Assembly: GCA_001917175.1 (NCBI GenBank)
Contig: MNTV01000018.1
Coordinates: 53,907 to 117,906 of the forward strand
Origin: Azospirillum sp. 51_20
GTDB taxonomy: Bacteria > Pseudomonadota > Alphaproteobacteria > RF32 > CAG-239
DNA: 64,000 nt
Direction: 5' to 3'
Part shown: one piece after another, positions 4,793 to 57,576 of the stretch
Numbering within the stretch: the first letter of the stretch is position 1
Layout of the letters: each line of letters opens with the position of its first letter
Notes under the pieces: model-generated
What the model was told of the DNA's origin: nothing
Database searches by the model: none
What the model saw: only the letters and a program-made list of their open reading frames with translations
Position numbers and translations under genes: made by a program

Positions 4793-4905
4793 GTTCCCCT
4801 GAAAACCACGTGTTAGACACAGGGGGTTACTTTTTGTGTTTTGCGTCCGTGCGGACAAACAGGCACAGACATTTTGGCACCCTCGTAAGGCCCGTATAGT
4901 CTGTT

Positions 4906-5252
4906 GGCCGGCCGAATACGATACGGACAATTTATCCCGCTTATGTCAGCCGGCAAAGGTTTACTTTTTGAAACAATCCGTCCCGAGGCAGCAAAAAAGA
5001 GGACGGCATTTCCGGGGTGACGAATTTGCGCAGCCTTCAGAACGGGAAATCATCGTCCGGCAGAACGTATCCGGCAGAACATAGCTCGTGGGCCGGCCGA
5101 ATACGATGCAGACAATTTATCCCGCTTATGTCAGCCGGCAAAGGTTTATTTTTTGAAACAATCCGTCCCGAGGCAACAAAAAAGAGGTCGGCATTTCCGG
5201 GGTGACGAATTTGCGCAGTCTTCGGAACGGGAAATCATCGTCCGGCAGAACG
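4906..5252. repeat. Tandem direct repeat, two copies of a ~185-bp unit (4906-5067 and 5091-5252) at about 93% identity
   Basis: Direct reading: GGCCGGCCGAATACGAT...CGTCCGGCAGAACG recurs with a period of 185 bp. The small ORFs inside it (82 and 71 aa) share sequence only because of the duplication. Confidence 0.85.
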
Positions 5253-5626
5253 CTGACCGCATAACCGATAAAAAATTATGCTTAAGCTGCCAAGGGTTGC
5301 AAATTTTTTACGAACAATCGGCTTGCGCGGAAAAAAGAAACAAACGTTACAACCTCAAAGAACTATAAAAAAGGATCTGTTTACGGCGTAAATTTTGATT
5401 ATAAATAACAAATAATTTGCATTGGAACATATGATGAAATTTGCCAAGACCGTATTTGTTACAATTTTGTTTTTCATTTCCGGCATATTGGGCACCATTT
5501 ATCTTCTGACACTTTATTTCTGGGAAAAACGCACTTTGACTATATTATCTTTTACGCCGAAAACGCAAACAAGGCCGGCAGCTCGTTAAATATTGCTTTA
5601 TCTTTTTCTGCAGCGTCGTCCCTCCT

Positions 5627-7340: not shown

Positions 7341-7928
7341 ATGCAAAGCTATTACAGCTGTCAAAGCGGACGTTCAATGGTTGAAATATTAGGCGTATTG
7401 GCAGTGATCGGCGTTTTGTCCGTCGGAGGCATAGCCGCATATTCAAAAGCAATGGAAAAAATCAACACCGACCAACTGATAGTTGACATCAGCACGACCG
7501 CGCGAAAAATCAAAAACCTGTATGCGGATCAGAAAAGCTATGAAGATTTGGACCAGCAGGTTTACACTCTTAATCTGGTTGCCGGCGCACACAAAATCGA
7601 AGGTATGAACAAAAAGCTGCTGCACATATTCAACGGCGAAGTATTCGTTAAGTCGATCGCCTTAAACAAAGGTTTTGTCATGGTTTACAACGGCTTGACG
7701 GAAAAAGCGTGCGCCACGCTGGCGTCTACCGACTGGGGCAACGGTTCGACCGGATTGAAATATCTGGTCGTCAGCCCGACCGGCATCATTCCGCCGCGGG
7801 GTTATCCTTCCAATCTTGATTCCGGCGAATACGAAGCCAAGGACATTCCGCTTTCGCCCGCCGAAGCCGCCGCGCATTGCAATTGCGACGCTTTTTACAA
7901 ATGCGGCATTGCCTGGTTCTACGAATAA
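7341..7928 (+). CDS. Prepilin-type protein, pilin paralog 2
   Basis: Leader MQSYYSCQSG followed by RSMVEILGVLAVIGVLSVGG. The N-terminus matches paralog 1 but the C-terminal domain diverges (Cys pair HCNCDAFYKC). It has the same upstream CTTGTATT element and a TTTTGGGAG ribosome-binding region. A terminator lies at 7957-7990. Confidence 0.75.
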   Translation: MQSYYSCQSGRSMVEILGVLAVIGVLSVGGIAAYSKAMEKINTDQLIVDISTTARKIKNLYADQKSYEDLDQQVYTLNLVAGAHKIEGMNKKLLHIFNGEVFVKSIALNKGFVMVYNGLTEKACATLASTDWGNGSTGLKYLVVSPTGIIPPRGYPSNLDSGEYEAKDIPLSPAEAAAHCNCDAFYKCGIAWFYE

Positions 7929-17267: not shown

Positions 17268-17861
17268 ATGAAAAAAACAATTTTGGGAGTATTTACGGCG
17301 ATGGCAATCATTAACAACGTTTCGGCCGCGGAACAAAAACTGCCCGACCCGAACCGGGAAGGCGGCATGCCGCTGATGCAGGCCTTAAACGAAAGACATT
17401 CGGTCAAACAGTTCGGCGACAAGGCAATTGATGACCAAACCTTAAGCGACCTTTTGTGGGCAGCCTACGGCGTCAACCGCAGCGGCGGCCTGCGTACCAT
17501 TCCGACGGCCATGAACCAGAAAGACCTTGAAATATACGTCGCCAAAGCCGACGGAATCTGGCAGTATAACGCCATCAGCCACACGCTCAAACAAATCGGC
17601 ACCGACAACATTCTGCCGCTGTTTCAAACTCAGGACTACATGAAAAACGTGCCGTTGGTATTGATATATACCGGCAGCAAAGACGAAGACTATCCGGCCA
17701 TGCATGCGGGATCGGCCTATCAGAACGTCGGCCTTTACGCCGCGTCCAGAGGGCTCGGCGCCGTCGTCCGCGGCTATTTTGACAAAGAAGCGGTTGCCAA
17801 AGCGCTGAACCTGCCGAACTCGGAAGCGGTCATTATCAGCCAGGCCATCGGTTGGGAGTAG
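17268..17861 (+). CDS. Secreted nitroreductase-family (SagB/ThcOx-like) protein
   Basis: Signal peptide MKKTILGVFTAMAIINNVSAA, followed by a nitroreductase-fold region. Confidence 0.6.
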   Translation: MKKTILGVFTAMAIINNVSAAEQKLPDPNREGGMPLMQALNERHSVKQFGDKAIDDQTLSDLLWAAYGVNRSGGLRTIPTAMNQKDLEIYVAKADGIWQYNAISHTLKQIGTDNILPLFQTQDYMKNVPLVLIYTGSKDEDYPAMHAGSAYQNVGLYAASRGLGAVVRGYFDKEAVAKALNLPNSEAVIISQAIGWE

Positions 17862-17964
17862 GAATGCCGAATCGCCGCATGCCGCCGGGTTAATGCGGCG
17901 CGGCCGGCGGCGAACATTTTTCTCAACACTGAAAAATCTCTCCTTCCGGAGGGATTTTTACTTT

Positions 17965-18063
17965 CGCGTTTTTATTTTTATACCTTGCCGTCGCTGCAGC
18001 CGCTTCGCTTTCGTTATACCATTTTAATACCGGCAGAACCGTCCGACGCGGTTTGCCGACCGG
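17965..18063. repeat. Left copy of a ~100-bp inverted repeat. Its partner is at 31128-31222.
   Basis: The reverse complement of 31128-31222 aligns with 17965-18063 at about 85-90% identity. The shared core is TTTTATTTTTATACCTTGCCG.CGCTGCAGCCGCTTCGCTTT.GTTATACCATTTTAATACCGGCAG. Confidence 0.7.
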
Positions 18064-18271
18064 CATCTTTTCTTCTTTTCGGGAACGTATTTTTTATCCA
18101 TAATTTTTTCCTTGTTAAACCAAAACAGAAAAAATCCCCTGTCGGGGCTAAAGAAAACAAAGCCGGAAATTGACAGACAAATAAGCAAAGCACAACGCAA
18201 ATATCTTTGAATGACAATAATAGCATGCAAATTCAACTTATTATACAAATTATGCCGTTTTTTTGAAATTT

Positions 18272-18301
18272 TTGTTGCAAAACTCAAGACAATGCTATAA
18301 T
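18272..18301 (+). promoter_or_regulatory. Sigma70-type promoter for tRNA-Ser
   Basis: TTGTTG/TTGCAA -35 elements and a TATAAT -10 ending about 16 nt before the tRNA 5' end. Confidence 0.5.
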
Positions 18302-18317
18302 CTGCCAACAGTTTTAC

Positions 18318-18408
18318 GGACAGGTGGCCGAGTGGTCGAAGGCGCACGATTGGAAATCGTGTGTACCCCTAAAGGGTACCAAGGGTTCGAATCCCTTTCT
18401 GTCCGCCA
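18318..18408 (+). tRNA. tRNA-Ser, anticodon GGA
   Basis: A manual fold gives a 7-bp acceptor stem (GGACAGG/TCTGTCC with one G-U pair) and an anticodon stem CACGA/TCGTG with loop TTGGAAA. There is a long variable arm of class II type, a GGTTCGAATCC T-loop, and an encoded CCA. Confidence 0.9.
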
Positions 18409-18416
18409 TTTTAATT

Positions 18417-18446
18417 AAAAAGACGCTCGTTTGCAGCGTCTTTTTT
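18417..18446 (+). terminator. Rho-independent terminator of the tRNA
   Basis: AAAAAGACGCT...AGCGTCTTTTTT hairpin. Confidence 0.65.
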
Positions 18447-18479
18447 CGTATCCGGCGGAAACACGGGCTTTGCGGGCAG

Positions 18480-18509
18480 TTGACATCGCCGAAATGACTA
18501 TGGTAAGCT
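18480..18509 (+). promoter_or_regulatory. Promoter-like element inside the direct repeat (TTGACA -35 and TAAGCT -10), reading into the island
   Basis: Perfect -35 hexamer, 18-bp spacer, and TAnnnT -10. It is conserved in the right-hand copy as TTGACT. Confidence 0.45.
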
Positions 18510-18591
18510 TGTTTTATGTTAAAAAATGCAAAAATTATGGCCCTTACATACAATGCCGATTTTTGTAAAGTCACTTCAGCGAGAAGAAACA

Positions 18592-19404
18592 ATGAGTGAG
18601 CTATCTTTTTCAGATAAAACAATTTTAGAAAATGCTTTGAATATGCATAATGGATATGTGTTAAATTTTACAGATCGTACTTTTTCAGATTTTTTTGCTA
18701 CGTTGGGAATAGATATTAATGCTGAAAAATACATGGCCAATGGAACATCTAAAGCTAATCGTCTTAGAACTTTTTGGAATATAGAAGATAATTTTGTAGT
18801 AGGGAAAGCAATTATAGAGTTAGCTAATATGATGAAGGCAGAAAATTTGTCTCAAACAACTGGTGTTAAAGCAGCGTGGATGACAGCTGGTGCTAAAAAT
18901 TTTTTTGAACAACAGCGAATATTAATTGAGCAAGTAGAAAAGATTGGATCAAAACTGGTAGATAATAAAGTTGTATCTCAAACAAAACCCAAGATAAATA
19001 CTTTTCAATATTGTAATGAACTTAATATCAGGATCAGAGAAGAAATTTACAGTCATATAAAACGTTATTTGGATAATGAAGATTATTTTCATGCTATAGA
19101 AGAGGCTTATAAAGTCGTAAGACATAAATTAAAAGAAATTACAGCAAAAGAAAAAGCCTCAGATGTTTTTAATCCAAATGCAGAAAATACCAAGTATCAT
19201 GAAAAATTATTTGGTGAAAATGCAGCTGTCGGCAGTCCTAAATATGATTTTTTTCGTGGTGTTGGTTATTTGCATTTGGCAGTTCAATTCCTACGAAATG
19301 AAAAAGCCCATATGCTAGCTCATGATTTAGATAAAAATTTGGCTCTTCATTATTTATCTTTGGCTAGCTTATCTTATGATTTAATTTCTAGAAATAACGT
19401 TTAA
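18592..19404 (+). CDS. Hypothetical protein. Its C-terminal region loosely resembles the Abi_C/TIGR02391 abortive-infection-associated domain. This is a tentative call.
   Basis: 271 aa, AT-rich. The C-terminus has FLRNEKAHML..HDLDKNLALHYLSL. It is the first gene inside the island, directly downstream of the repeat-borne promoter. Confidence 0.5.
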   Translation: MSELSFSDKTILENALNMHNGYVLNFTDRTFSDFFATLGIDINAEKYMANGTSKANRLRTFWNIEDNFVVGKAIIELANMMKAENLSQTTGVKAAWMTAGAKNFFEQQRILIEQVEKIGSKLVDNKVVSQTKPKINTFQYCNELNIRIREEIYSHIKRYLDNEDYFHAIEEAYKVVRHKLKEITAKEKASDVFNPNAENTKYHEKLFGENAAVGSPKYDFFRGVGYLHLAVQFLRNEKAHMLAHDLDKNLALHYLSLASLSYDLISRNNV

Positions 19405-21024
19405 CATCTTTTCCTGCTCTTCAAAGATTAGGTTTTTAGAGGCGATATCGAAGAGGGTTTGCAGATTGATGGTTAGGGTTCCGGAGAGAAGTTGATTGAC
19501 TATTCTTGGTGAGAGGTAGGCAAGGTTGAGATATTTGTAGATGGTACGTTTGGAGATGTGTTCTTGCTTGGCGATGTCATCGGTTGCCATACCGTTTTCA
19601 TAAAGTTTTTTATACCGCCAAGCATAGGCAAAGGCTCGGACAATCAAGCGGTTGTTGTCATTCACACTCATCAGCCCGACTTTACCAGCGTTATAGACAT
19701 TGCTTGACAGCCCGCGGTTGATGATGACTTGTTTTTCATAGATGATTTGATTGTTGGCATTATCGGCAATGAACTCTAGCGGATTATCGTTTTGGTTTAA
19801 CGAATCGCTGGTATAGGCTGAGAGAATTATCGGATCGGTATTAAAAAAGAAGGTCAGGCGATCTTTTTGATAGATGATTTTGTTAATGAAGTTGCGGATA
19901 AAATTGCGTTGCGCGAAGTAGTCCATATCAGTAAAGTTTATCAGCTTTAGAGCCATGGCGCTATCTTTGTTCAGCCCATTGAAGTTACTGTTAAGAATTT
20001 CAATTATGGCATCTTTGGCGAGCTTATCAATTTGTTCTGTTGGCAGGAACAAGCCTTTGATAGAATAGTAATGTCTTTTGGTAGCTTTCTTTTTGCTGTT
20101 GGCTTGATTGGTAAAAATGGTGCCATTGGCATCAAATAACTTGCCTGTCAGCAGGTTATTGTTTCGGCTCCTTGTATGATTAGCGCAGTTGTCATTTTCT
20201 TTGAGCATGGCTTGCACCTTTTCCCATAATTCTTTTGATATGATGGCCTCATGCTGTCCTTTAAATGCTTGTCCGGTGCGTTTGTTCTCAATCATGCCGA
20301 GGTATAATTTTTCATGCAGCAAGCGGTGGAGCGCGGATATTTTAAAAGGTTTGCCGCCTCTCTGTTCCCCCTTGTTGGTTATCCAGCTTTTATGTTTGAA
20401 ACCTTTAATTTCAGCAAATTTCTCAAGTTCGGTCAGAGAGCCGCATTGTAAATAGCCTTCAAAAATGCTGTGTACCTGTTCGGCCTCGACGGGATTAATG
20501 ACCAGTTTTTTGTCTTTAATATCATAACCAAGTTTGGGAACGCCGCCCGTCCATAAGCCTTTGGCTTTACTGGCGCGGATTTTATCACGGACACGCTCTG
20601 AGGATACCTCTCGCTCGAATTGAGCAAAGGACAGCAACATATTTAAGGTCAGCTTGCCCATGGAGGTTGAGGTATCAAATGCCTGTGTGATCGAAACAAA
20701 ACTGCAGCCATATTTATCAAATTCTTTCATCATATTGTGGAAGTCCATTATTGAACGTGACAAACGGTCAACTTTGTAAACCACTACCGTTTGAACTAAT
20801 CCTCGGCGGATGTCTTCAAGCATTTGTTTTAAAGCCGGGCGTTCCATTGTGCCGCCGGAAATGCCGCCGTCGGTATAGGTTTTGAAATATTCCCAGTTGT
20901 TAAAGGCTTGAGACATAATGTAACTGCGACAGGCGTCTTCCTGATTATGCAGCGAGTTAAACTCAAGCTCCAAGCCTTTTTCGGTAGATTTGCGGACATA
21001 GATCGCGCAGTTTATTCTAATCAT
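19381..21024 (-). CDS. Large serine recombinase (resolvase/invertase N-domain, recombinase domain, zinc ribbon)
   Basis: N-terminus AIYVRKSTEKG...VYKVDRLSRS matches a resolvase catalytic domain. At 547 aa it has the length of a large serine recombinase. Confidence 0.9.
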   Translation of the reverse strand: MIRINCAIYVRKSTEKGLELEFNSLHNQEDACRSYIMSQAFNNWEYFKTYTDGGISGGTMERPALKQMLEDIRRGLVQTVVVYKVDRLSRSIMDFHNMMKEFDKYGCSFVSITQAFDTSTSMGKLTLNMLLSFAQFEREVSSERVRDKIRASKAKGLWTGGVPKLGYDIKDKKLVINPVEAEQVHSIFEGYLQCGSLTELEKFAEIKGFKHKSWITNKGEQRGGKPFKISALHRLLHEKLYLGMIENKRTGQAFKGQHEAIISKELWEKVQAMLKENDNCANHTRSRNNNLLTGKLFDANGTIFTNQANSKKKATKRHYYSIKGLFLPTEQIDKLAKDAIIEILNSNFNGLNKDSAMALKLINFTDMDYFAQRNFIRNFINKIIYQKDRLTFFFNTDPIILSAYTSDSLNQNDNPLEFIADNANNQIIYEKQVIINRGLSSNVYNAGKVGLMSVNDNNRLIVRAFAYAWRYKKLYENGMATDDIAKQEHISKRTIYKYLNLAYLSPRIVNQLLSGTLTINLQTLFDIASKNLIFEEQEKMLNVISRN

Positions 21025-21469
21025 GAGCCGTCTCCTTTAATGCCCGTTTGTTATTTAATCCGAAGAAGTCATAACCGGAAACCTTTATGCCGCAGATTTC
21101 TTTGGCTACAGCGGATAAGGTTTTATAATGCTGTCCGTTGTAGATAAAATCGTTAATCTCAGCTATAGTAACCTTATATTGTCGACCAAGATAGGTTTTA
21201 ATGATTTCGGTACCGGGATGCAGATTGTATTTGGTCTTATAAACCTTAACCATACACTCATCGGGGTTTTCGGCGTATTTTTCTAGCTTAGTCAGATGTT
21301 TGCGTTCAATTTTAAGATTGGCGTTTTCGCAGGCGTTATAATACCACAGTGCGCGAAACTGCCGTTCATAGGGACTGTTATGATACCGCGCCCATAGTTC
21401 AGCTTGTTTCTGGTGATTTAGCTTTTTTAATTCTTCAGCGCTTTTCGGCAGATAAATCTTCTTTCTCAT
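21017..21469 (-). CDS. DUF2924-like protein, a partner commonly found upstream of large serine recombinases
   Basis: 150 aa. Its stop overlaps the recombinase start. It has an ELWARY...RQFRALWYY pattern. Confidence 0.55.
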   Translation of the reverse strand: MRKKIYLPKSAEELKKLNHQKQAELWARYHNSPYERQFRALWYYNACENANLKIERKHLTKLEKYAENPDECMVKVYKTKYNLHPGTEIIKTYLGRQYKVTIAEINDFIYNGQHYKTLSAVAKEICGIKVSGYDFFGLNNKRALKETAHD

Positions 21470-21662
21470 CGGTCAACTCCTTGTTTTTTATATATTTTCC
21501 AAGTAAAGCAACGCTTACTGTTTTAAGAAAGTCAAGCCTAATAGCTTGGTTTCTCCAAGCCTTTGATTTTTAATGATAAATCTCGAGTTTGATTTTTGTA
21601 TATTATATACAATCCTCCGTTTGAGGAGGAATCTGTTTAAATTGAAATAAAGGAGAAAAAGT

Positions 21663-22997
21663 ATGTCTGATATGTATATAAAAATTGAATATACAGCCTT
21701 GGAAAATCTTAACCCTTATAAAGGAAATCCTAAGGTTCATGACGAGAAACAAATTCAGCAAATTGCTAAGTCGATTGAAAGATTTGGTTTTAATAATCCC
21801 ATTTTGATTGATGAAAAATCAGAGGTAATTGCCGGTCATGGTCGTCTGTTGGCCGCAAGACTGTTAAAACTGGAAACAGTTCCGGTAGTTCGTCTCATAC
21901 ATCTTTCTGAAGCGGAAAAACGGGCTTATCGCATAGCAGACAATAAATTATCAGAGAATGGTCGATGGGATACGGATTTGTTAAAGCTGGAATTTTCAGA
22001 AATTGAGAAACTGGCTCTGAATCTTGAAGATGAATTGAATCTGGATATTACCGGGTTTGATTTTAAGGAGATAGATGTTCTTTTGGCCGATAATAAATCC
22101 AACGAAAAAGCGGATGAAAAACTTAATTCCGTTCCGTATGTGCCGGAAAATGAAATAGTCAGTCAACACGGCGATGTCTGGCTTCTGGGAAAACACAAAA
22201 TTATTTGCGGAGATTCATTGCAAGGGGAAACATATCAGCGTTTGTTTGAAGAGGTTAAAGCCAATATGGTTTTTATTGATTCGCCGTACAATGTTAAAAT
22301 TCAAGGACATGTTTGCGGCGCAGGTCAAACGAAGCATAAAGAGTTTGCCTTTGGTTCCGGCGAGATGAATGAGGCTGAATTTATTTCGTTTTTGAAAACA
22401 TCAATGGCGAATATAGCCAAATATTCTGCTGAAAATTCCATTCATTATATTTGCATGGATTGGCGACATATATCCGAGCTGCTTTCCGCTTCTCGAGATA
22501 TCTATCCCCAAATGCTGAATATGGTGGTTTGGTGCAAAAAGAATGGTGGGATGGGTAGTTTTTACCGATCCCAGCACGAATTGATTTTTGTTTTTCAGAA
22601 TGGAAAAGGCTCTCATGTTAATAATGTGGAGTTAGGCAAGCATGGCCGCTATCGAACAAATGTTTGGCATTATGCCGGTGTTAACAGTTTTGGCTCCGAA
22701 CAGAAAAATCTTAAAATGCATCCGACGGTCAAACCGGTAGAATTAGTCCGCGATGCAATTTTGGATGCGTCTAAACGGGGCGATATTGTGCTGGATGCGT
22801 TTCTCGGCAGCGGAACAACGCTGATTGCAGCAGAAAAAGCCGGACGTGTTTGTTATGGAATCGAGTATGAGCCCTTGTATATCGATACGATTATCCGTCG
22901 GTATCACGAATTAACTGGAAATTGGGCAATTCATCTAAGTTCGCAAAAATCATATGAGCAATTATTGCAAGAAAAATTGGAGAAAATCAATGAGTGA
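21663..22997 (+). CDS. ParB-like N-terminal domain fused to a DNA methyltransferase (N6-adenine / N4-cytosine beta class)
   Basis: N-terminal ParB-like segment (IAGHGRLLAA). The central DSPYN motif is of the DPPY type. The gene lies immediately upstream of terminase-associated genes, a typical phage arrangement. Confidence 0.8.
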   Translation: MSDMYIKIEYTALENLNPYKGNPKVHDEKQIQQIAKSIERFGFNNPILIDEKSEVIAGHGRLLAARLLKLETVPVVRLIHLSEAEKRAYRIADNKLSENGRWDTDLLKLEFSEIEKLALNLEDELNLDITGFDFKEIDVLLADNKSNEKADEKLNSVPYVPENEIVSQHGDVWLLGKHKIICGDSLQGETYQRLFEEVKANMVFIDSPYNVKIQGHVCGAGQTKHKEFAFGSGEMNEAEFISFLKTSMANIAKYSAENSIHYICMDWRHISELLSASRDIYPQMLNMVVWCKKNGGMGSFYRSQHELIFVFQNGKGSHVNNVELGKHGRYRTNVWHYAGVNSFGSEQKNLKMHPTVKPVELVRDAILDASKRGDIVLDAFLGSGTTLIAAEKAGRVCYGIEYEPLYIDTIIRRYHELTGNWAIHLSSQKSYEQLLQEKLEKINE

Positions 22998-23361
22998 AAG
23001 CGGTTATAAAAATCCGCCCAAACATTCGCGATTTCAGAAAGGGTGTTCGGGTAATCCTGCAGGGAGGCCGAAAGGAAGCAAGAACACGCTCAAACTTCTG
23101 GATGCTGTTTTGGAACAGAAAATTAAAATTCAGCAAGAGGGCAAAACCATCAGCATTACCAAAAAGCAGGCGATGCTGATGCAATTGGTTAATGCTGCGG
23201 TAAAAGGCGAAATTAAGGCCATTGCGGCGCTTTTTCCATACATGATGCAGCTGGACATGAAAGAAGAGCAATCCTTGGAAACAAACAAATTGTCTCTAAA
23301 AGATGAGGAAATTTTACAACAATTTTTAGAAGAAAATAAACAGGAGAGTAAAAATGACTGA
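22990..23361 (+). CDS. DUF5681-like protein of the kind usually found just upstream of a large terminase. It may be a small-terminase-like or packaging accessory protein.
   Basis: Basic N-terminus (KNPPKHSRFQKGCSGNPAGRPKGSKN). Its ATG overlaps the TGA of the preceding gene, and its stop overlaps the TerL start. Confidence 0.55.
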   Translation: MSESGYKNPPKHSRFQKGCSGNPAGRPKGSKNTLKLLDAVLEQKIKIQQEGKTISITKKQAMLMQLVNAAVKGEIKAIAALFPYMMQLDMKEEQSLETNKLSLKDEEILQQFLEENKQESKND

Positions 23362-24919
23362 TATAAATCAGGTTAAAAATGCGATATTACGCAAAAGTTT
23401 TTCAAGCTTTGTACAGAAGTGTTTTTATGAATTAAATCCTTCGGAGGCATTTATAAAAGGCGCGTATATAGACTTATTATGCGATCAAATCCAAAATATG
23501 ATAGAGGGAAAAAATCAGAAATTGATAATCAATCTTCCTCCAAGATATTTAAAATCGGTTATATGTTCTATAGCTTTGCCCGCGTTTATTTTGGGGCATA
23601 ATCCGTCAACTAAAATTATGTGCATCAGCTATGGTGAGGAGTTGGCTTCCAAATTAGCGGCTGATTGTAAGAGCGTTATGGAGGCGGATTGGTATAAAGC
23701 GCTTTTCCCTGAGACGAAAATCCGGACAGATAAAAAATCTGTTATGGATTTTGAAACGACAAAACACGGCGGACGGTTTGCGACGACAATTTCAGGAGCA
23801 GTCACAGGACGCGGCGCAGACTGGATTATTATAGATGATCCGCTAAAACCGGCTGATGCCCTTTCAGACGTGGTTAGGGAAAAAATTAATGAACTCTATG
23901 GAAATACTGTCAGTTCCAGACTGAATGATAAAAATACCGGGAGAATACTCGTGGTCATGCAGCGTTTGCATGCGCATGATTTATCCGGTTTCCTGTTTGA
24001 GAACGATCCTGATTTTAAGTCTATCGTCTTGCCGCTAATTGCTGAAAAAGATGAAAAATGGCAAATAAAAAATCGTATTGCCAAAACGATAACGACATAT
24101 GAGCGGAAAAAAGGAGAATTGTTGCATCCGGAACGCGAAGGCGAAAAAGTTGTAAACAGTTATCGCAATTCGATGAGTCCTTTTGTATTTTCTGCGCAAT
24201 ATCAGCAGAATCCAATGCCTATCGGCAGCGGAATGATCAAACAGGAGTGGATGAAGTATTATCAAGCACTGCCGTCAAGATTAGATAAAATTATTTTATC
24301 GTGGGATACAGCGGCTAAGGCTATGGAAAATAACGCTTATTCTGCCTGCGCGGTTGTCGGAATCGGAAATGAAAATGGTCAGAAATATTATCTGATAGAG
24401 GTGTTTCGCGGCAGACTTAATTTTCCTGAATTAACAAAAAAGGTTCAGGAAATATCTGATAAATATGAAAGAATTGCGCAGGGGCGGACTATAACTTTGA
24501 TTGAAGACGCCTCATCCGGAACTTCTTTATATCAAACGTTGAAAGGTAGAATCGCAAGCCTGAAGTCTGTTTTTTGCAAAGGTTCTAAGGAGCAGCGCTT
24601 TAATATTGTCACGTTAAAAACCGAGCAAGGGGACTTGTTGTTTCCGGGCAAATATGAATCCTGGTTCAAAAATTTTGAAGATGAGTTCTTAACTTTTCCG
24701 AATTCTTTATTTAAGGATCAATGTGACGCATTGAGCCAAGCCCTGAATTATGGTTTGGAAAATTATAATCAGGTTTCGCAAAATATGCCGTTGGCCGCCC
24801 GCGTGGATACGATGTGCGGTATGGGCGGTTATAATACCGGCATAGAGGAACTCTATAGCATGAATAATATACCATATAAATCTAATGGAGGCTATGCTTG
24901 GTGGAATGGTAAATCTTAA
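23354..24919 (+). CDS. Phage terminase large subunit
   Basis: 521 aa with an N-terminal ATPase region (hhhhDDP Walker B at WIIIDDPLKP) and a C-terminal nuclease-like region. Confidence 0.75.
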   Translation: MTDINQVKNAILRKSFSSFVQKCFYELNPSEAFIKGAYIDLLCDQIQNMIEGKNQKLIINLPPRYLKSVICSIALPAFILGHNPSTKIMCISYGEELASKLAADCKSVMEADWYKALFPETKIRTDKKSVMDFETTKHGGRFATTISGAVTGRGADWIIIDDPLKPADALSDVVREKINELYGNTVSSRLNDKNTGRILVVMQRLHAHDLSGFLFENDPDFKSIVLPLIAEKDEKWQIKNRIAKTITTYERKKGELLHPEREGEKVVNSYRNSMSPFVFSAQYQQNPMPIGSGMIKQEWMKYYQALPSRLDKIILSWDTAAKAMENNAYSACAVVGIGNENGQKYYLIEVFRGRLNFPELTKKVQEISDKYERIAQGRTITLIEDASSGTSLYQTLKGRIASLKSVFCKGSKEQRFNIVTLKTEQGDLLFPGKYESWFKNFEDEFLTFPNSLFKDQCDALSQALNYGLENYNQVSQNMPLAARVDTMCGMGGYNTGIEELYSMNNIPYKSNGGYAWWNGKS

Positions 24920-24925
24920 GACGTT

Positions 24926-25258
24926 TTACTTGGCGATTATTTCAAAATTGTCAATCAGCTTTAGCAGGGATTCCTTTTGAGAATCAGTCATAAGGTTGAG
25001 TTTGCGGATGATTTTGTCTTTCACGTCCTGCTGCGATATATCTTCTTTCAAATCTTTGGTAATATCAATGTCCAAAGCGAAAAGCAGTTTGTACAGCGAG
25101 TAGGAGCGCGGATTTTGCTTTTGATTCTCAATCAAGTTAATAGACGAATAATCCATACCGCTCAGCTCGGACAATTTTTCACTGGAAATTTTGCCGGCTA
25201 ATCGTCTTTTTCGAATAGAATCGCTGATAAGCCTTAAAAACTCTTTTTCATTAAGCAT
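24926..25258 (-). CDS. XRE-family helix-turn-helix transcriptional regulator
   Basis: 110 aa with an HTH at KISSEKLSELSGMDYSSINLIENQKQNP. It is divergent from the downstream plus-strand block, with an AT-rich promoter region at 25259-25379. Confidence 0.75.
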   Translation of the reverse strand: MLNEKEFLRLISDSIRKRRLAGKISSEKLSELSGMDYSSINLIENQKQNPRSYSLYKLLFALDIDITKDLKEDISQQDVKDKIIRKLNLMTDSQKESLLKLIDNFEIIAK

Positions 25259-25379
25259 GCTTCACCCCTTAAAAATATATTGGGATGATACAATAGCTTT
25301 TTCGATAAAAGTATTGCGATAAAACAATATAATTTTATTGACTAAACAAAATAATTAAACCAACATAAGGAGAAAGAAA

Positions 25380-25673
25380 ATGGCGTTAGTTTACGTTACG
25401 GACATTGAATATCAGGCAGATATAAAAGTATTTGCCGTTAATGAGAGGTATCAGGCTGATTTATGTTTTTTCGAGGTTGATCGAGATTACAAGGCCAATA
25501 CGGAGGCAAAATGGTTTTTTGAAGATAAGGACTATAAAGCGACGGTTAAAATATATTGGGTTGAACATGAGTATCAGGCAGATTTGAAAGTCTTCCGGGT
25601 TACGCAGGAACACCTAGCCGGTTGGCAAAAGAGCCACCGTTTGATTACGAGATTGGGAAAATACACATATTAA
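25380..25673 (+). CDS. Small protein built from tandem ~12-residue repeats (EYQADIKVF / RYQADLCFF / DYKANTEAKWFF / DYKATVKIYWV / EYQADLKVF)
   Basis: Direct reading of the 97-aa ORF. The repeats have period [D/E/R]Y[Q/K]A[D/N/T] followed by alternating hydrophobic positions. A strong AAGGAG ribosome-binding site lies upstream. Confidence 0.5.
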   Translation: MALVYVTDIEYQADIKVFAVNERYQADLCFFEVDRDYKANTEAKWFFEDKDYKATVKIYWVEHEYQADLKVFRVTQEHLAGWQKSHRLITRLGKYTY

Positions 25674-25686
25674 AGGAGATAAAAAA

Positions 25687-25935
25687 ATGACAGAAGAAGT
25701 TAAAAAAGAAACCCCAAAAACAAAATTGCCCGGCTTGCCGCCGTTGGTTGCGTTTATTTATGCGGTTCTCATTTTTATTATGACCATGGGGTACCTTAAG
25801 GTATTTCTTATTATGGGTTTCAGGATGAATCCTGATGAAGCCGGAATATTGTCATTTTTTGCGGGAGCGTTTTTTGCCTATATCGGCAACAAAGGAGTTA
25901 GAGCCATGTTTAAGCTGAGAGAACTGTCAAAATAA
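25687..25935 (+). CDS. Small membrane protein (2-3 TM)
   Basis: 82-aa hydrophobic ORF translationally close to its neighbours. Confidence 0.45.
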   Translation: MTEEVKKETPKTKLPGLPPLVAFIYAVLIFIMTMGYLKVFLIMGFRMNPDEAGILSFFAGAFFAYIGNKGVRAMFKLRELSK

Positions 25936-25947
25936 AGGATTTAGGTT

Positions 25948-26760
25948 ATGGTTAGGATATTGCGCGCAGCAACTTGGAACTTTGGCTACGGTTCTGTTGG
26001 TTCACCCAGCAAGAACAACAAGACGAAAGTTCAAAAAGCCCTTGAATATCTGCGGAAAAATAATGTGGATATTGTTTTGGCGCAGGAAATTTTTGATCCA
26101 AACGAGTTGCGGCGTCTTTATCCTAACCAGATTTATTCTGACGTTCCCGTTTATAATCCGCAGGGGCAAGGATTATGGGGCGCGATGGATTTTTCGATTG
26201 ATACGCGCAATAACAATAGCCGCCCTAAATGGGGAACGGCGATATTGGCTGCCGAGAATGTCAATTTGAGCAAAATTGAGTTAAAATATAGCACCGCCTA
26301 TCCGGGAAGCATGACTGTTGCACAGATTGCAGGAACGGACATTGCCGTTATTTCCATGTATGGCAAAAATGTCTATGATTATGAAAAAGTAACGGCTTTT
26401 TCGTATCTGGCCAATCTGCATCGCTGTTTATCCGATACTGCGCCGCTGCTGGACGGTTTTTCTTCTGCCAAAAGATTTATTATCGCCGGCGATTGGAATG
26501 CCGGGCCGCAATGGGATAAGGGAAAGTCGCGCAAGAATTTTAACTTTTTTGAGCGGTTGGCAACCTTTGATCTTAAGGATTGTTTGGGGCATTTTCCTGA
26601 CGGCGGTTATGAAACGACATTTAAACATAACGGCAATCGACAAATAGACTGGATGTTTGCCAGCCAGGCGTTTACTGTTCATAATCCGCATATTGACTAT
26701 GTAGCGGAGATTGAGGATTTGTCTGATCATTACCCGATAATTGCGGAATTTGAGATATGA
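25948..26760 (+). CDS. Endonuclease/exonuclease/phosphatase (EEP) family protein
   Basis: 270 aa. N-terminal ATWNFGYG and C-terminal SDHYPIIAEF motifs are typical of the EEP fold. Confidence 0.75.
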   Translation: MVRILRAATWNFGYGSVGSPSKNNKTKVQKALEYLRKNNVDIVLAQEIFDPNELRRLYPNQIYSDVPVYNPQGQGLWGAMDFSIDTRNNNSRPKWGTAILAAENVNLSKIELKYSTAYPGSMTVAQIAGTDIAVISMYGKNVYDYEKVTAFSYLANLHRCLSDTAPLLDGFSSAKRFIIAGDWNAGPQWDKGKSRKNFNFFERLATFDLKDCLGHFPDGGYETTFKHNGNRQIDWMFASQAFTVHNPHIDYVAEIEDLSDHYPIIAEFEI

Positions 26761-27188
26761 AAAAGGGTAATGTAATGTTTTGGAAATTCTTATTTTTAGG
26801 CTTTATTGTATGTTTTTCTGTTCAAGCACAGGAAAAAGCCAATAGTACCAGCGAACAAAATGATTATGGTATCTTTATTATCGGTGTTGCGATTTATTTA
26901 CTTTTTAAAGCAGTGGGGGTTATCTGGCATTATCGCTGTCCGAAATGCAAAAAATGGTGGGTAATGCGACAGGAAAAGAAAGAACTGCTGAATACGGATG
27001 TTGTGACCGAATCCAGAAAAGAAGAAATAAAAGACAATAACGGAAATGTGTTGCGGGTAGAGGAAGTAGAGGTTCCCGTATTGGTTCGTCATTATGAAAT
27101 TTGGCGAAAATGTAAGCATTGCGGACATCTTGTTAAGATTTTTGAAGACGAGAAGGAAGAAAAATATAACAGAACACCGCTTAAATAA
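26757..27188 (+). CDS. Membrane-anchored zinc-ribbon protein
   Basis: Signal/TM sequence at the N-terminus, a second TM, and two CxxC pairs (CPKCKKW ... CKHCGH). Confidence 0.5.
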   Translation: MKKGNVMFWKFLFLGFIVCFSVQAQEKANSTSEQNDYGIFIIGVAIYLLFKAVGVIWHYRCPKCKKWWVMRQEKKELLNTDVVTESRKEEIKDNNGNVLRVEEVEVPVLVRHYEIWRKCKHCGHLVKIFEDEKEEKYNRTPLK

Positions 27189-27203
27189 TGAGAGGAAACA
27201 GAT

Positions 27204-28160
27204 ATGCGGAAAATTAGTTGGCTGGCGATTTTGTTGATAGGCGGATGTACTCTGATAGTAGAACAGAGTAATCTTGTTTCCTTAAATGATTCTTCAGAAT
27301 TCCGCTTTCTGGATGAACAGGTATTCATATGCTCGTGCCGTCAGCTCAAGGAAGAAAGTTATGATATTTTCTATGCGGCGGAAAATCAAAAATGTCTGGA
27401 AGAGAATGCCAAGCAAATGCAAAAGCTGTCCGAACAGATTGAGCAGACGAATGATTTAATTAAGAAAGAGAAACTTCTTGATGATGTATTGGCAAGTTCT
27501 GAAAAGTTTGATGCCTGTAAAATATCTAAGGGGTTAACTGTTGCCGGTTTTGCTAAACAATCTAATGACAGCGCTATTGCATACTGGGAGCGTGATAAAA
27601 TAATCGCTTATTTTACCCAAACTTATCAGATTTGTGAAAATGGAGAATATTTTGATAAGAATGACGGAAGCCGTATTGTTGCGGATTATCAAACTGTGGC
27701 GCGGCAAAAAGAGAAAAATACGCCGAAGATAGAAAAATTTAAGGAGTTAAAAAGCAAAATTTCCTCTCAAAATCAGATGAATAAAAAGATTGCGGCGCTT
27801 TTATCCGGAGACAATCCGATTATAAGAAAAATGCAGCAGGCAGCTCCTGATTTTATGCGGGTAAAGGTTAATGAATGTCCGATAATCTTTTTTGTGCAGT
27901 TTCTCAAGGAAAATGTGGCAATGTTTAATTCTGATTTTGCCTTTGCTGATAACTATCAATTTAAGAAAAAAGGCGCAGACACGCTTGTTTTGACTGTCGG
28001 TGATATCGAATATACTTTCCTGAAAAAAGGAAAAGACAGCGCGGATGTCATAATTGTTAAAGATATTGATCAATGGGGCAATCAGATAATCAATAAAAGC
28101 ACTATTCTAAATAATATTGACGTTTCCTCATCGTGCTGGGGGTATTATAAGGCTATATAA
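27204..28160 (+). CDS. Lipoprotein of unknown function
   Basis: MRKISWLAILLIGGC lipobox. 318 aa, AT-rich. Confidence 0.55.
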   Translation: MRKISWLAILLIGGCTLIVEQSNLVSLNDSSEFRFLDEQVFICSCRQLKEESYDIFYAAENQKCLEENAKQMQKLSEQIEQTNDLIKKEKLLDDVLASSEKFDACKISKGLTVAGFAKQSNDSAIAYWERDKIIAYFTQTYQICENGEYFDKNDGSRIVADYQTVARQKEKNTPKIEKFKELKSKISSQNQMNKKIAALLSGDNPIIRKMQQAAPDFMRVKVNECPIIFFVQFLKENVAMFNSDFAFADNYQFKKKGADTLVLTVGDIEYTFLKKGKDSADVIIVKDIDQWGNQIINKSTILNNIDVSSSCWGYYKAI

Positions 28161-28246
28161 AAAATTTGGAGATATTTGCATTTAATTGTAGAAATATTGT
28201 ATGTAAACTGATATTAACTAATTATTAATAACTTTAAGATTAGCTA

Positions 28247-29071
28247 ATGTTAAATAGAGACTTAATAATATCTCCTTTTTTAAAATGGGCAGGTGGAAAG
28301 CGTTGGCTTATTCATCAATGCATTGATATTTTCCCTAAGCAAAATGAATATAATGTTTATTATGAACCTTTTTTGGGAAGTGCGGCGGTTTTTTTTCATT
28401 TAAAACCGTTTCATGCTGTTTTATCTGATATTAATGCGGAACTAATAGATACATATAAAACTATTAAAAGTTCTCCTTCCGCTGTCGTTTCATTATTGAA
28501 AAATCATCATAATTTACATAGCAAAGAACATTATTATCATGTAAGAAGTGCTTTATATTCTAACGATGTTGAAAAAGCTGCTCGTTTTATTTACTTAAAT
28601 AGAACTTGTTGGAATGGGTTATATCGTGTTAATAATTCTGGAGGATTTAATGTCCCTATCGGCACTAAAACAAAAGTGATTCTCGATAACGATAATTTTG
28701 AGGCAGTTGCTAAATTGTTAGAAAATGCAATAATATTAAAAATGGATTTTGAAGAAGCTATGCAACAAGCTCAAAAAAATGATTTTATTTTTGTAGATCC
28801 TCCATATACAGTTAAACACAATTCTAATGCTTTTGTGCAATATAATGAAACGTTGTTTTCTTGGGCGGATCAAGTTCGTTTAAGAGATAGCGTAGAAAGT
28901 GCTGTTAGTAGAGGTGTTAAAGTTTTAGTTACAAATGCTAATCACTCCTCAATTAGAGAGTTATATGATGGTTTGGGAGATATGATCTGTTTATCTAGAG
29001 CTAGCGTTTTGGCATCAAATCCTGAAAAAAGGGGGAAATATGAGGAGTTAGCTATAAAATGTGGTTATTAA
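28247..29071 (+). CDS. Dam-family (D12 class) N6-adenine DNA methyltransferase
   Basis: N-terminus PFLKWAGGKRWL, FxGSAAV, and a DPPY motif (FVDPPYT). 274 aa. Strongly AT-rich relative to the host sequence. Confidence 0.8.
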   Translation: MLNRDLIISPFLKWAGGKRWLIHQCIDIFPKQNEYNVYYEPFLGSAAVFFHLKPFHAVLSDINAELIDTYKTIKSSPSAVVSLLKNHHNLHSKEHYYHVRSALYSNDVEKAARFIYLNRTCWNGLYRVNNSGGFNVPIGTKTKVILDNDNFEAVAKLLENAIILKMDFEEAMQQAQKNDFIFVDPPYTVKHNSNAFVQYNETLFSWADQVRLRDSVESAVSRGVKVLVTNANHSSIRELYDGLGDMICLSRASVLASNPEKRGKYEELAIKCGY

Positions 29072-29577
29072 ATATAAGAAAAATAGGCTTTGAATTATGG
29101 AAATGGCTTCTAGCATGGTTTTTTGTCTCTTTACCTTCTTTAGTTACAATGTTCTGGCTATGGGTAAGAGAAAAAGAGCTTGCTAAACCAAGTATCATGG
29201 GCATTGGTACGAGTGAATTCCTTGTTTATGCTATATCTTTTTCTGCCCCATTGTTTGCTCAGTGTTTCTTTAAAAATAGAACAAAAAAGTTATTTCATTT
29301 TACAGATTTTATTGCTTTTATAATTTTTTTAGCATCAATAGTTCTATTTATTATGCTAAAAGAAGAAACAGCAATAGATAAATTAAATATATTATTTAGA
29401 TGGGTTTTGATATTGTATATAGCTTCTTTACTATTTTCTTTGTTATCAGCTTTATGCATTGCTCTTATTCCAGATAGAGAAACTATTGAAAAAGCAAATA
29501 TTGAGCAACAAAATGATTTTAATTCTGCATTTGATAAAATCTTAGAAGAACGAGGTGTGAAAAATGAACACATATAA
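29059..29577 (+). CDS. Membrane protein with four predicted TM helices and unknown function
   Basis: 172 aa. It overlaps the Dam stop by 13 nt, and its own stop is overlapped by the DGQHR gene start. Confidence 0.55.
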   Translation: MWLLNIRKIGFELWKWLLAWFFVSLPSLVTMFWLWVREKELAKPSIMGIGTSEFLVYAISFSAPLFAQCFFKNRTKKLFHFTDFIAFIIFLASIVLFIMLKEETAIDKLNILFRWVLILYIASLLFSLLSALCIALIPDRETIEKANIEQQNDFNSAFDKILEERGVKNEHI

Positions 29578-30718
29578 AACTAAGGTTATTAAAGTTCGTC
29601 AACCGATAGGTGACTTTTATATAGCATCTTTGCCTTGTAGTATCGTTGCTCAAATTGCGACTGCAGATGTTAGGCGTTTGGAAGAGCGAGATGTAGAGAA
29701 ATATCTTGGAATACAAAGGCCTTTAAAAGAAGATCGAGTTAAAGAACTACAAAAATATGTTAAAACTATGGATGCGACATTTCCTACTTCTGTTATTTTA
29801 GCGGTTGATGAGAAGTGTGCATCTTTAAATGAAGATGATATGGAGTTAACGTTGTCTGAATACATAGATAATGAACATCCTGAAGATTCTATTCCAATGG
29901 AACAAGTTGCAAAAATAATTGATGGTCAACACCGAATAGCTAGTTTCGTTGAAATAGATAAGGATGGACAACGTATATTTAAGTTTGGAGATGAAATTTT
30001 TGATATAAGTGTGGCAATATTTATTGGCGCGGATATATCGCAACAAGCTAACATTTTTTCTACGGTTAATTTAGCTCAAACTAAGGTAAACAAAAGTTTA
30101 GCATATGATTTAGCAGATTTAGCAAAATATAGAAGTCCTCAAAAAACATGTCATATGATTTCAGTTATGCTTGATTCTAGAGAAGATAGTCCTTTTTATC
30201 AAAGAATTAAGCGGTTAGGTGTCAAAACACAAGGGCGGGTACAGTTAGAGCCTTTAACTCAAGCTGTGTTTGTTGAAGCTTTGATGAAATTTATATCTGC
30301 AGAACCGATGAAAGATAGAGATTTGTTGCAGAGGAAAAAAAGTCTTCCACTGCTTAACGATAAAGATTTAGTCAAATTTCCTTTTAGAAATTTGTTTATT
30401 GAAGAAAAAGATTCAGATATTGCATTTATTATATATGAATATTTTTCAGCAATAAAAAGTTTGTGGCCAAAATCATGGAATGATTTAACGACTAAAGGAA
30501 ATATTCTGCCTAAAAGTAATGCTTTTAGGGCTTTTATGCGGTATTTACATGAAATATGTGGAGAAAATCTAAATAAAATTATGAATAGAAATGACTTTTT
30601 GTCGTATTTTAATAAAGATGCTTTTATTGATGGAGATGTTACCAGCCAACAATTTTTACCAGGTAGTGGTGGAGAAGCTGCATTTTTGAAAAAATTACAA
30701 AAAAAGCATTGTGATTAA
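29564..30718 (+). CDS. DGQHR-domain protein (DndB-like, ParB/Srx-related DNA-binding family)
   Basis: Contains the literal motif IIDGQHRIASF. 384 aa. It is the last gene of the plus-strand block in the island. Confidence 0.75.
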   Translation: MNTYKTKVIKVRQPIGDFYIASLPCSIVAQIATADVRRLEERDVEKYLGIQRPLKEDRVKELQKYVKTMDATFPTSVILAVDEKCASLNEDDMELTLSEYIDNEHPEDSIPMEQVAKIIDGQHRIASFVEIDKDGQRIFKFGDEIFDISVAIFIGADISQQANIFSTVNLAQTKVNKSLAYDLADLAKYRSPQKTCHMISVMLDSREDSPFYQRIKRLGVKTQGRVQLEPLTQAVFVEALMKFISAEPMKDRDLLQRKKSLPLLNDKDLVKFPFRNLFIEEKDSDIAFIIYEYFSAIKSLWPKSWNDLTTKGNILPKSNAFRAFMRYLHEICGENLNKIMNRNDFLSYFNKDAFIDGDVTSQQFLPGSGGEAAFLKKLQKKHCD

Positions 30719-30972
30719 TCCCTTTTTTTGATAAAAATTCCCTGATAAATTTGTGGCTAGGTAGGCACAATCCAAGTAAATCTGTATATTTGTGAGAATT
30801 TTGCATGTAAAATCCACCCAAATTTCCCTGCAGATTCTCTGTTATTAGAGAATGGATAATGATACATTCGTAATTTGGTGGTAGAAAAGATTTATGGTCA
30901 TCGGTTTAGAATATTAGCGAAATTTCATCTTTCGTATGCTTAATACCGTTGGGGTTTACTACACCGCCATTT

Positions 30973-31122
30973 TGATTAAAAAGACGCTAAATGATAGCGT
31001 CTTTTTTTGTATCCGGCGGAAATGCGGGCTTTGCGGGCGGTTGACTTCGCCGAAATGACTATGGTAAGCTCGTTTTATATTGGAAAATGCAAAGTTTTAG
31101 GCAGTTACATACGATGCCAGTC
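30973..31122. repeat. Right copy of the ~150-bp direct repeat. It is not preceded by a tRNA.
   Basis: See the 18403-18560 entry. It begins ACACCGCCATTTTGATTAAAAAGACGCT. Confidence 0.75.
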
Positions 31123-31127
31123 AGCTA

Positions 31128-31222
31128 ACCGCACCGGACGGACCTGCCGGTATTAAAATGGTATAACAAAAGCGAAGCGGCTGCAGCGGCGGCAAGGTAT
31201 AAAAATAAAAATGCGAATGCCG
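31128..31222. repeat. Right copy of the ~100-bp inverted repeat
   Basis: See the 17965-18063 entry. Confidence 0.7.
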
Positions 31223-57565: not shown

Positions 57566-57576
57566 ATGACTTGCTC

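Follow-up and report, generated by a model that had tools for sequence, protein, structure and literature searches.

Direct and inverted repeats around a serine-recombinase island at a tRNA-Ser gene in Azospirillum sp. 51_20

The stretch of DNA analyzed here, referred to throughout as the window, comprises 64,000 nucleotides of contig MNTV01000018.1 from Azospirillum sp. 51_20 (assembly GCA_001917175.1) and contains a 12,561-bp mobile island at the 3′ end of a tRNA-Ser(GGA) gene, bracketed by a long direct repeat (DR) and, outside this, by an inverted repeat (IR). Very probably, the left copy of the DR is the end module of the island itself, the right copy is resident in the host and most likely a relic, and the IR is a feature of the host. 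The repeat architecture is that of ordinary island accretion at a tRNA gene. The island family combines a serine recombinase, the CCA end of tRNA-Ser as its target, a portable terminator–promoter module, and two cargo hotspots.

Repeats and junctions at occupied, naive, and empty sites

Both repeats could be aligned by BLASTN and are far beyond chance. The DR pairs 18403–18557 with 30964–31118 (155 nt, 85% identity, ungapped; E = 3e-46), and the IR pairs 17963–18067 with 31113–31217 (105 nt, 90% complementary; E = 4e-37). An earlier, sequence-only reading had proposed a direct repeat of ~150 bp beginning at the tRNA 3′ end and an outer inverted repeat of ~100 bp, and both are real. The left start of the DR was also placed correctly, but the right copy, given as 30973–31122, had been started 9 nt too late, its true start being 30964. 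The right IR arm exists but had been offset by 5–15 nt (31128–31222), and rather than standing immediately after the right DR copy it overlaps that copy by about 6–9 nt (GATGCC). CCGCCA forms the start of both DR copies, the left one being the last 6 nt of the tRNA, and a hairpin with a T-run as well as TTGAC(A/T)-N18-TAAGCT are present in both. A repeat search of the 64-kb window found no further repeats of comparable size involving the DR or IR sequences. The features of the locus are as follows (L-numbers are retrieved loci used for comparison).

17963–18078, read on the minus strand: left IR arm, unit "E," with the nitroreductase terminator on one side and the tRNA promoter on the other
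18318–18408, plus strand: tRNA-Ser(GGA) with encoded CCA end, the integration target (ARAGORN; Rfam tRNA, 58 bits)
18403–18408, plus strand: CCGCCA, common core of the left junction (attL) and sole sequence duplicated by insertion
18403–18557, plus strand: left DR copy, the island's own end module, including the right-hand arm of its attachment site, 158/158 identical to the L043 module
18403–30963, plus strand: mobile island, 12,561 bp, 100.000% identical in L043 and L039
30934–30963, plus strand: right end of the island, conserved and forming the left-hand arm of the attachment site, GTATGCTTAATACCGTTGGGGTTTACTACA
30964–31118, plus strand: right DR copy, resident host module (core CCGCCA 30964–30969), 159/159 identical to L005
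31110–31217, read on the plus strand: right IR arm, unit E, whose GATGCC start overlaps the module end

Copies of the island were retrieved via its exact terminase protein and came from at least five chromosomal contexts. At L043, the island is identical over 12,561 of 12,561 nt and is found at a tRNA-Ser(TGA) gene in unrelated flanks; identity with the window breaks off 1 nt left of 18403 and, on the other side, 6 nt (CCGCCA) past 30963. The left module at L043 equals the left copy of the window at 158 of 158 positions. At the right junction, CCGCCA comes next after the island end TTTACTACA, and beyond it lies the tRNA's own, unrelated terminator, with no module. Right junctions without a module were also observed in L044, L032, and L037. 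Because of junctions of this type, the insertion can be said to duplicate only CCGCCA, the left DR copy moving as part of the island. Duplication of CCGCCA only is as expected for a serine recombinase, and the naive sites bear out the earlier view that the long DR is not the product of a serine-recombinase crossover. L043 may itself belong to the focal species (that of the window), representing a second tRNA-Ser site about 50 kb away; GC content does not decide whether it is another species.

The alleles of the two window copies locate the exchange. Each is a pure parental allele (L043 for the left, L005 for the right), the first difference between them lying 11 nt into the repeat. As both junction copies are unrecombined, the crossover is placed within CCGCCATTTT, which is too short for RecA-type recombination and thus indicates a site-specific rather than a homologous exchange. 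This goes against acquisition by homologous recombination, one of the mechanisms raised in the sequence-only reading. RecA-dependent (Campbell-type) entry between modules can draw on the 155 bp that the copies share at 85–97% identity, and on mosaic alleles and allele sharing that show homologous exchange within the module in the population. Such entry would nevertheless have to account for two pure parental copies (158/158 and 159/159) with the exchange in the first 10 nt, where the longest identical block elsewhere in the repeat is 24 nt, and for insertion of the same island at sites sharing CCGCCA only. For the window insertion it is already contradicted, and overall we consider it highly improbable.

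A second proposed source of the long DR was a tRNA-targeting tyrosine-integrase element, acting earlier or as a second mechanism. The repeat does start in the tRNA 3′ end like those of classical tRNA islands, and extra 14–19-nt tRNA-Ser 3′ fragments are present at some related loci. However, only 6 nt of the tRNA are repeated, the remainder of the unit lying downstream of the gene, and no displaced tRNA fragment of 15–50 nt was found at the distal end, where the sequence to the left of the distal CCGCCA, GGGGTTTACTACA, is not tRNA. No Phage_integrase domain was detected in any of the 15 open reading frames (ORFs) tiling the island, and the gaps of <250 bp leave no room for another recombinase. 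Wherever the sequence suffices, the repeated unit is linked to a serine recombinase, as the end module of its island. An earlier element at the tRNA stands as the best explanation of the right copy, but one of the tyrosine-integrase type is extremely unlikely.

A difference in half-site register was also considered. At the L043 host site, the distance between the motif ATTAAAAAG and the core is 5 bp shorter than in the island site, which resembles the canonical offset for serine integrases; this was dropped, as other naive sites and left arms are without the offset.

Focal-species loci were retrieved via contigs encoding the exact left-flank nitroreductase and could be summarized as 17 contexts (nine occupied, seven empty, and one remnant). 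The empty sites L002, L003, L005, L006, and L009 consist of the left IR arm, 250 bp, tRNA-Ser(GGA), one module, and the right IR arm, so that in island-free strains the IR arms are about 480 bp apart. The right DR copy is resident, because empty sites hold just one module, which in L005 matches the right copy at 159 of 159 positions. The IR is likewise a host feature, because island-free strains carry both arms around tRNA-Ser(GGA); comparison with island-free genomes, as suggested in the sequence-only reading, returned both arms with no island between them, an outcome which that reading had itself named as counting against its interpretation.

Unit E is present in two copies, in the focal species only among the species examined, and both copies point away from the tRNA. 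In all likelihood, the IR is an older, species-specific host duplication flanking the tRNA locus, which became "outer" only when the island landed between its arms. For unit E, no Rfam match, consistent fold (z-scores −2.6 to +0.8, with the two arms in disagreement), or conserved ORF was found. Between strains, the polymorphism of the arms is 10–30 times that of the DNA around them, and the right arm of L038 carries the left-arm variant GGTTC, which suggests gene conversion between the arms.

The inverted pair had also been considered as a substrate for inversion of the whole segment or as the boundary of a larger composite element including the island. At 105 nt and 90–94% identity, the arms would be sufficient for homologous inversion, and the L038 variant shows that they exchange sequence. 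All 18 focal-species loci inspected, however, are in one orientation, both arms flank the tRNA in strains without the island, and the island moves without the arms (L041–L044). Neither inversion isomers nor a composite found support, and a role of the pair in either is very unlikely.

The end module and the origin of its resident copy

For the distribution of the module, a pattern from its promoter-like stretch was scanned against 185,579 species genomes, giving 21 loci, all in uncultured gut Alphaproteobacteria, with a maximum of two per genome; their modules start at the CCGCCA of tRNA-Ser(GGA) or (CGA). A scan of the viral collection IMG/VR gave no matches. The module sample comprised 45 copies from several species, with 33 distinct sequences. 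All 45 lie at the CCGCCA of tRNA-Ser (GGA, CGA, or TGA) or of a short tRNA 3′ fragment, either at island ends or at island-free sites of tRNA-Ser, which speaks against the suggestion that the DR belongs to a dispersed intergenic family. That one or both repeats are of REP- or MITE-like type is hard to credit. The internal imperfect dyad and the elevated polymorphism of unit E would favor such an origin. On the other side, the 21 DR loci of the scan are all tRNA-Ser 3′ ends or island ends, and for the IR the window contains two copies and the fetched loci only orthologous positions (local data only).

Where the sequence suffices, island-borne copies are followed by the leader (GATTTTTGnAAAGTCACTTCAG), the variable slot, and the recombinase 3′ end. 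Across loci, the module is 78–93% identical and the recombinase 76–95% identical at the amino acid level, compared with only 39–53% for the neighboring host nitroreductase. Because module and recombinase are conserved while the host gene has diverged, the module belongs to the mobile element. Its order is CCGCCA, hairpin and T-run, a GC-rich stretch, TTGAC(A/T)-18 nt-TAAGCT, and a leader of about 45 nt. The elements of the window's left copy, and the leader sequence that adjoins it, are as follows.

18417–18446, plus strand: predicted replacement tRNA terminator hairpin, AAAAAGACGCT, 7-nt loop, AGCGTCTTTTT, and T-run (by fold)
18480–18509, plus strand: promoter-like element, TTGACA, 18-nt spacer ending in TGG (extended −10), TAAGCT
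18558–18581, plus strand: conserved leader GATTTTTGnAAAGTCACTTCAGCG, left edge of the variable cargo slot

The stem of the hairpin is conserved, its 7-nt loop is hypervariable, and two compensatory stem changes are present in L016, covariation by which a terminator role is supported. The promoter-like element is the most conserved stretch of the module, and promoter activity may be supposed from this conservation and from its position. A strict scan for consensus promoters and terminators did not call the module elements, the −10 hexamer matching at 3 of 6 positions. The sequence-only reading had island insertion placing the first island gene under a host-like promoter; the element is instead carried by the island and is conserved across hosts whose neighboring gene is 39–53% identical. 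For the leader, RNAalifold on 24 sequences returned no conserved pairs. No Rfam families besides tRNA passed, and weak sub-threshold matches overlapped the tRNA or its terminator. A small ORF (MTMVS…) starting in the "promoter," which in the resident copy runs on in frame into E and in the left-arm unit E has a 25-amino acid ORF as its counterpart, was considered and rejected, being interrupted by an in-frame stop in L010 and a frameshift in L023 and not conserved in length.

These observations can be arranged into a proposed history. An earlier island of the same family would have left its module directly after the tRNA, giving the right DR copy as a relic, and the rest of this older island, together with the native tRNA flank, would have been lost by a microhomology-ended deletion in ATGCC. 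The serine recombinase would then have integrated the present 12,561-bp island into the last six bases (CCGCCA) of tRNA-Ser(GGA). The incoming island is taken to have recombined within CCGCCATTTT, moving the resident copy 12.5 kb away and so creating a DR of 155 bp and 85% identity. Crossover at this position would separate a tRNA from its native terminator, and the island's module is predicted to restore the tRNA 3′ end and to supply a terminator, and its promoter-like element and leader would be directed toward an exchangeable cargo slot that precedes the recombinase gene. An excised circle would, in this model, carry the module, with the junction TTTACTACA-CCGCCA-TTTTAATT. An attP-type junction of right end, CCGCCA plus module, and left-end genes was observed on the 2,155-bp contig L030, which could derive from a circle or from a tandem array.

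The resident copy is most likely a remnant that a previous island of this family left behind, judging from sequence comparison of naive sites, decay states, and tandem arrays. Naive sites are without a module. L008 retains the module, the leader, and a Fic gene, followed by the last ~32 nt of the resident module; L024 retains a recombinase fragment and half a module; and L034 contains two or three elements in tandem. Resident copies always end in ACATACGATGCC, and nearly all island copies end in ACATAC[A/T][A/T]TGCC, a few being one base off; the remnant L008 also has G. Both copies of unit E start with GATGCC, even the left one, which has never adjoined a module, and the junction between module and E is therefore placed in the common ATGCC. 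The resident module differs by 1.3–10% among island-free strains, compared with 0.1–0.3% for the flanking kilobases, and terminator-loop variants are common to resident and island copies, also across species. The excess polymorphism and the common loop variants indicate that the resident copy repeatedly exchanges sequence with incoming islands.

The reverse direction was also weighed, namely that the resident unit is ancestral host DNA (tRNA terminator plus host promoter) that was captured by the island, e.g. by aberrant excision. The resident copy is present in every focal-species strain seen, several related hosts have at least the first 60–76 nt after tRNA-Ser(GGA) at right junctions, and the island module of L038/L041 matches a resident allele at all but 3 of 155 positions, all of which would fit such a capture. 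The promoter half of the resident module, however, faces no gene; beyond it come unit E, then 370 bp without coding sequence, and then an aldo-keto reductase gene in convergent orientation. The module is found at three different tRNA-Ser genes, and its divergence tracks that of the recombinase (in L014 and L022, 78% of nucleotides with 76–79% of amino acids), pointing to a long-standing association. In species B, the half module is 90% identical, with a neighboring gene at 44% and the tRNA at 89–90%; vertical conservation of an intergenic stretch does not account for this. Capture from the host is accordingly judged to be quite unlikely.

Several points nonetheless weigh against a relic and against the proposed roles of the module. 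No focal-species strain was seen without the resident module, and no direct ancestor–descendant pair was found for the proposed deletion. Half a module occurs at the right junctions of four other host contexts, with the break at about 60–76 nt, and independent random deletions are not expected to break at nearly the same position. With a resident module in place, host and island right arms are equal over at least 150 bp, a situation in which efficient integration is not foreseen by the canonical serine-integrase directionality model. As a promoter, the element has a weak −10 hexamer, and in roughly one third of the cargo types the genes face the opposite way. As 21 of the copies were found with the promoter-like pattern, the apparent invariance of this stretch is inflated; in copies found via proteins or the island right end, it is invariant or one base off.

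Equality of the arms also raises a different possibility, which we consider unlikely: that integration at the tRNA-Ser locus is freely reversible and repeatable, without half-site asymmetry or a directionality factor. Its basis is that, after integration next to a resident module, the left junction cannot be told apart from a host site without the island, nor the right junction from the site of the island itself. If the cysteine-poor, CcrB-like recombinase does act on such sites, the locus would be a natural landing pad where defense-carrying islands swap, which would explain an occupancy of ~50%, the tandem arrays, and the 30–50-fold excess of module polymorphism.

Gene content, cargo, and spread of the island

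The island has a GC content of 37%, against about 52% in the flanks, and its genes are arranged as follows.

18592–19404, plus strand: cargo gene of the TIGR02391/Hypoth_Ymh family, left hotspot
19381–21024, minus strand: large serine recombinase, sole recombinase of the island, 547 amino acids (Pfam Resolvase, Recombinase)
21017–21469, minus strand: DUF2924 protein, always paired with the recombinase
21663–28160, plus strand except for the helix-turn-helix (HTH) gene on the minus strand: conserved island core, nine genes
28247–30718, plus strand: second variable region, with a Dam-type D12 methyltransferase, a 172-amino acid membrane protein, and a DGQHR/DndB-like protein

The core encodes, in its first part, a ParB_N-N6/N4 methyltransferase, a DUF5681 protein, a large terminase (phrog_38, 4e-97), and the HTH repressor-like protein on the minus strand; the second part contains a DUF6150 gene, an 82-amino acid gene, an Exo_endo_phos nuclease, and genes for 143- and 318-amino acid proteins of unknown function. 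No capsid, portal, tail, or lysis genes were recognized among the island proteins, five of the core proteins being without annotation. The island is terminase-encoding and satellite-like, and by analogy it may depend on a helper.

The recombinase of the island presumably catalyzes its integration, the sequence support for this being the one attP-type junction on L030. Matches were obtained to Pfam Resolvase (1.5e-40, residues 7–157) and Recombinase (8.5e-15, residues 178–277), with a C-terminal HTH_7, and the PDB matches include the TP901-1 integrase (1.5e-23) and the A118 integrase. The top NCBIfam match was CcrB, at 149 bits against a cut-off of 900, so that the protein is not a CcrB equivalog. 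Large serine recombinases carry a four-Cys zinc ribbon and a coiled coil that sets directionality. No match to Zn_ribbon_recom was obtained for this recombinase or for 120 relatives (86–95% identical). Beyond residue 278 there is a single Cys, the C-terminal end being an HTH_7/ParB-like segment, and the sequence reads LLTGKLFDANGTIF…RHYYSIKG where the canonical zinc-ribbon motif would have Cys. The recombinase had no matches in IMG/VR. Island-length circular contigs were sought via the recombinase relatives P0007, P0024, and P0028, and integrated copies only were returned, including variants with a DnaB-like helicase. In the variant at L046, a DnaB-like helicase and a Cas4-like nuclease follow the terminase.

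The slot between leader and recombinase varies in length from 189 bp (empty, L028) to 2,480 bp. Its contents in different copies include a type VI retron reverse transcriptase (RT_VI, 1e-75) with an HTH partner, AbiH (PADLOC 2e-25, Pfam 2e-48), PD-Lambda-3_A (5e-11), Fic, DUF4238, a weak HEPN/AbiU2-like protein, and several unknowns. The slot is a defense hotspot of the type described for P4-like satellites. Right-end variants were compared in L038, L040–L042, L044, and L045, all with a terminase protein 100% identical to that of the window. The second variable region of other copies holds HNH_2-CTD10 with MC6/MC7, DUF2326, a reverse transcriptase-trypsin protein, and a 131-amino acid protein or, as an alternative, ParB_N with a 278-amino acid protein and a C5 methylase.

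The islands are mosaic. When L038–L045 were compared with 19381–24919 of the window, the terminase was 100% and the ParB-methyltransferase 99–100% identical, and the adjacent block of recombinase, DUF2924, cargo, and module was about 93% identical between the same variants. The terminase and methyltransferase values extend across hosts in which the neighboring gene is only 44% identical, a pattern pointing to very recent spread of the island family between hosts. The exact terminase protein was found in 1,571 blocks of the assembly collection, and the family is widespread in uncultured human-gut Alphaproteobacteria. In L040 and L045, the island connects a left flank from one species with a right flank from the focal species; these contigs are probably chimeric metagenome assemblies rather than true recombinants.

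Additional inserts of 180–260 bp were noted after tRNA-Ser and its own terminator at L018 (5190–5370), L021 (5712–5970), and L043 (about 17620–17850). They end in a 14–19-nt copy of the tRNA 3′ end, next to which stands a module or a second terminator copy, and look like relics of another element using the same tRNAs.

Relation to described elements

The closest described elements are the ssrA islands of Dehalococcoides, in which a CcrB-like recombinase at the left junction is associated with the tmRNA 3′ end, a 20-bp repeat, tandem arrays, and fixed remnants (McMurdie et al. 2011, PMC3146451). Shared with these are a CcrB-like serine recombinase of ~540 amino acids encoded on the reverse strand by the left junction, ParB-domain and methylase genes in its vicinity, a site at the 3′ end of an essential RNA gene, tandem accretion, and downstream remnants. 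A looser likeness is to the SCCmec cassettes mobilized by CcrAB. In contrast to these, the target here is tRNA-Ser (three isoacceptor genes) rather than tmRNA or rlmH, a second small serine recombinase is absent, and a terminase and the 155-bp terminator–promoter module are present; the insertion-made repeat is 6 bp instead of 20 bp.

According to a 2014 statement, targeting of tRNA genes by serine recombinases was not known (Hudson et al. 2015, PMC4383910). Like the classical tyrosine-integrase tRNA islands (Islander), the present island restores the tRNA 3′ end with its own DNA, forms tandem arrays, and accumulates as damaged copies, but the enzyme is a serine recombinase, and what the island brings back is 6 nt of tRNA and a whole terminator rather than a fragment of 15–50 nt. 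Tycheposons of Prochlorococcus, 910 of 937 of which use tyrosine recombinases, with partial tRNAs of ~40 nt as flanks (Hackl et al., bioRxiv 10.1101/2020.12.28.424599), similarly carry cargo, partly PICI-like, at tRNA genes including tRNA-Ser, with newcomers pushing older elements inward and leaving remnants; a terminator–promoter end module as found here is not described for them.

At a fixed position amid conserved element genes, P4-like satellites and P2-like phages hold interchangeable anti-phage genes (Rousset et al. 2022, PMC9122126), as does the slot of the present island; the systems differ in element family, integrase type, and hosts, and in that the slot of the island lies behind an attachment-site arm with a promoter-like module. 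The order of large serine recombinase, DUF2924, and large terminase in an alphaproteobacterial host recurs in Wolbachia phage WO (PMC11376236), but WO is a whole phage that has genes for structural proteins and lysis, none of which were recognized in the island.

For annotation, a long DR around a serine-recombinase island need not imply a second integrase, as it can consist of an end module and a relic, and empty sites together with the same island at a naive site separate the two cases. Biologically, a portable terminator would solve the separation of a tRNA from its terminator, and exchangeable anti-phage genes would come to lie behind a portable promoter-like element. Those who prospect for integrases may also find the 6-bp core and the relaxed right arm of interest.

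Elsewhere in the window, 4896–5265 consists of two tandem 185-nt units (91% identical) with no ORF of at least 150 amino acids. A 107-nt repeat (78%) at 4185–4291 and 7362–7468 corresponds to the 5′ ends of two paralogous genes for proteins of ~200 amino acids, one of which has a faint pilin ("Bundlin") match. On the minus strand, 44222–57583 holds an ORF of 4,453 amino acids rich in short internal repeats, probably a surface/adhesin-type protein.

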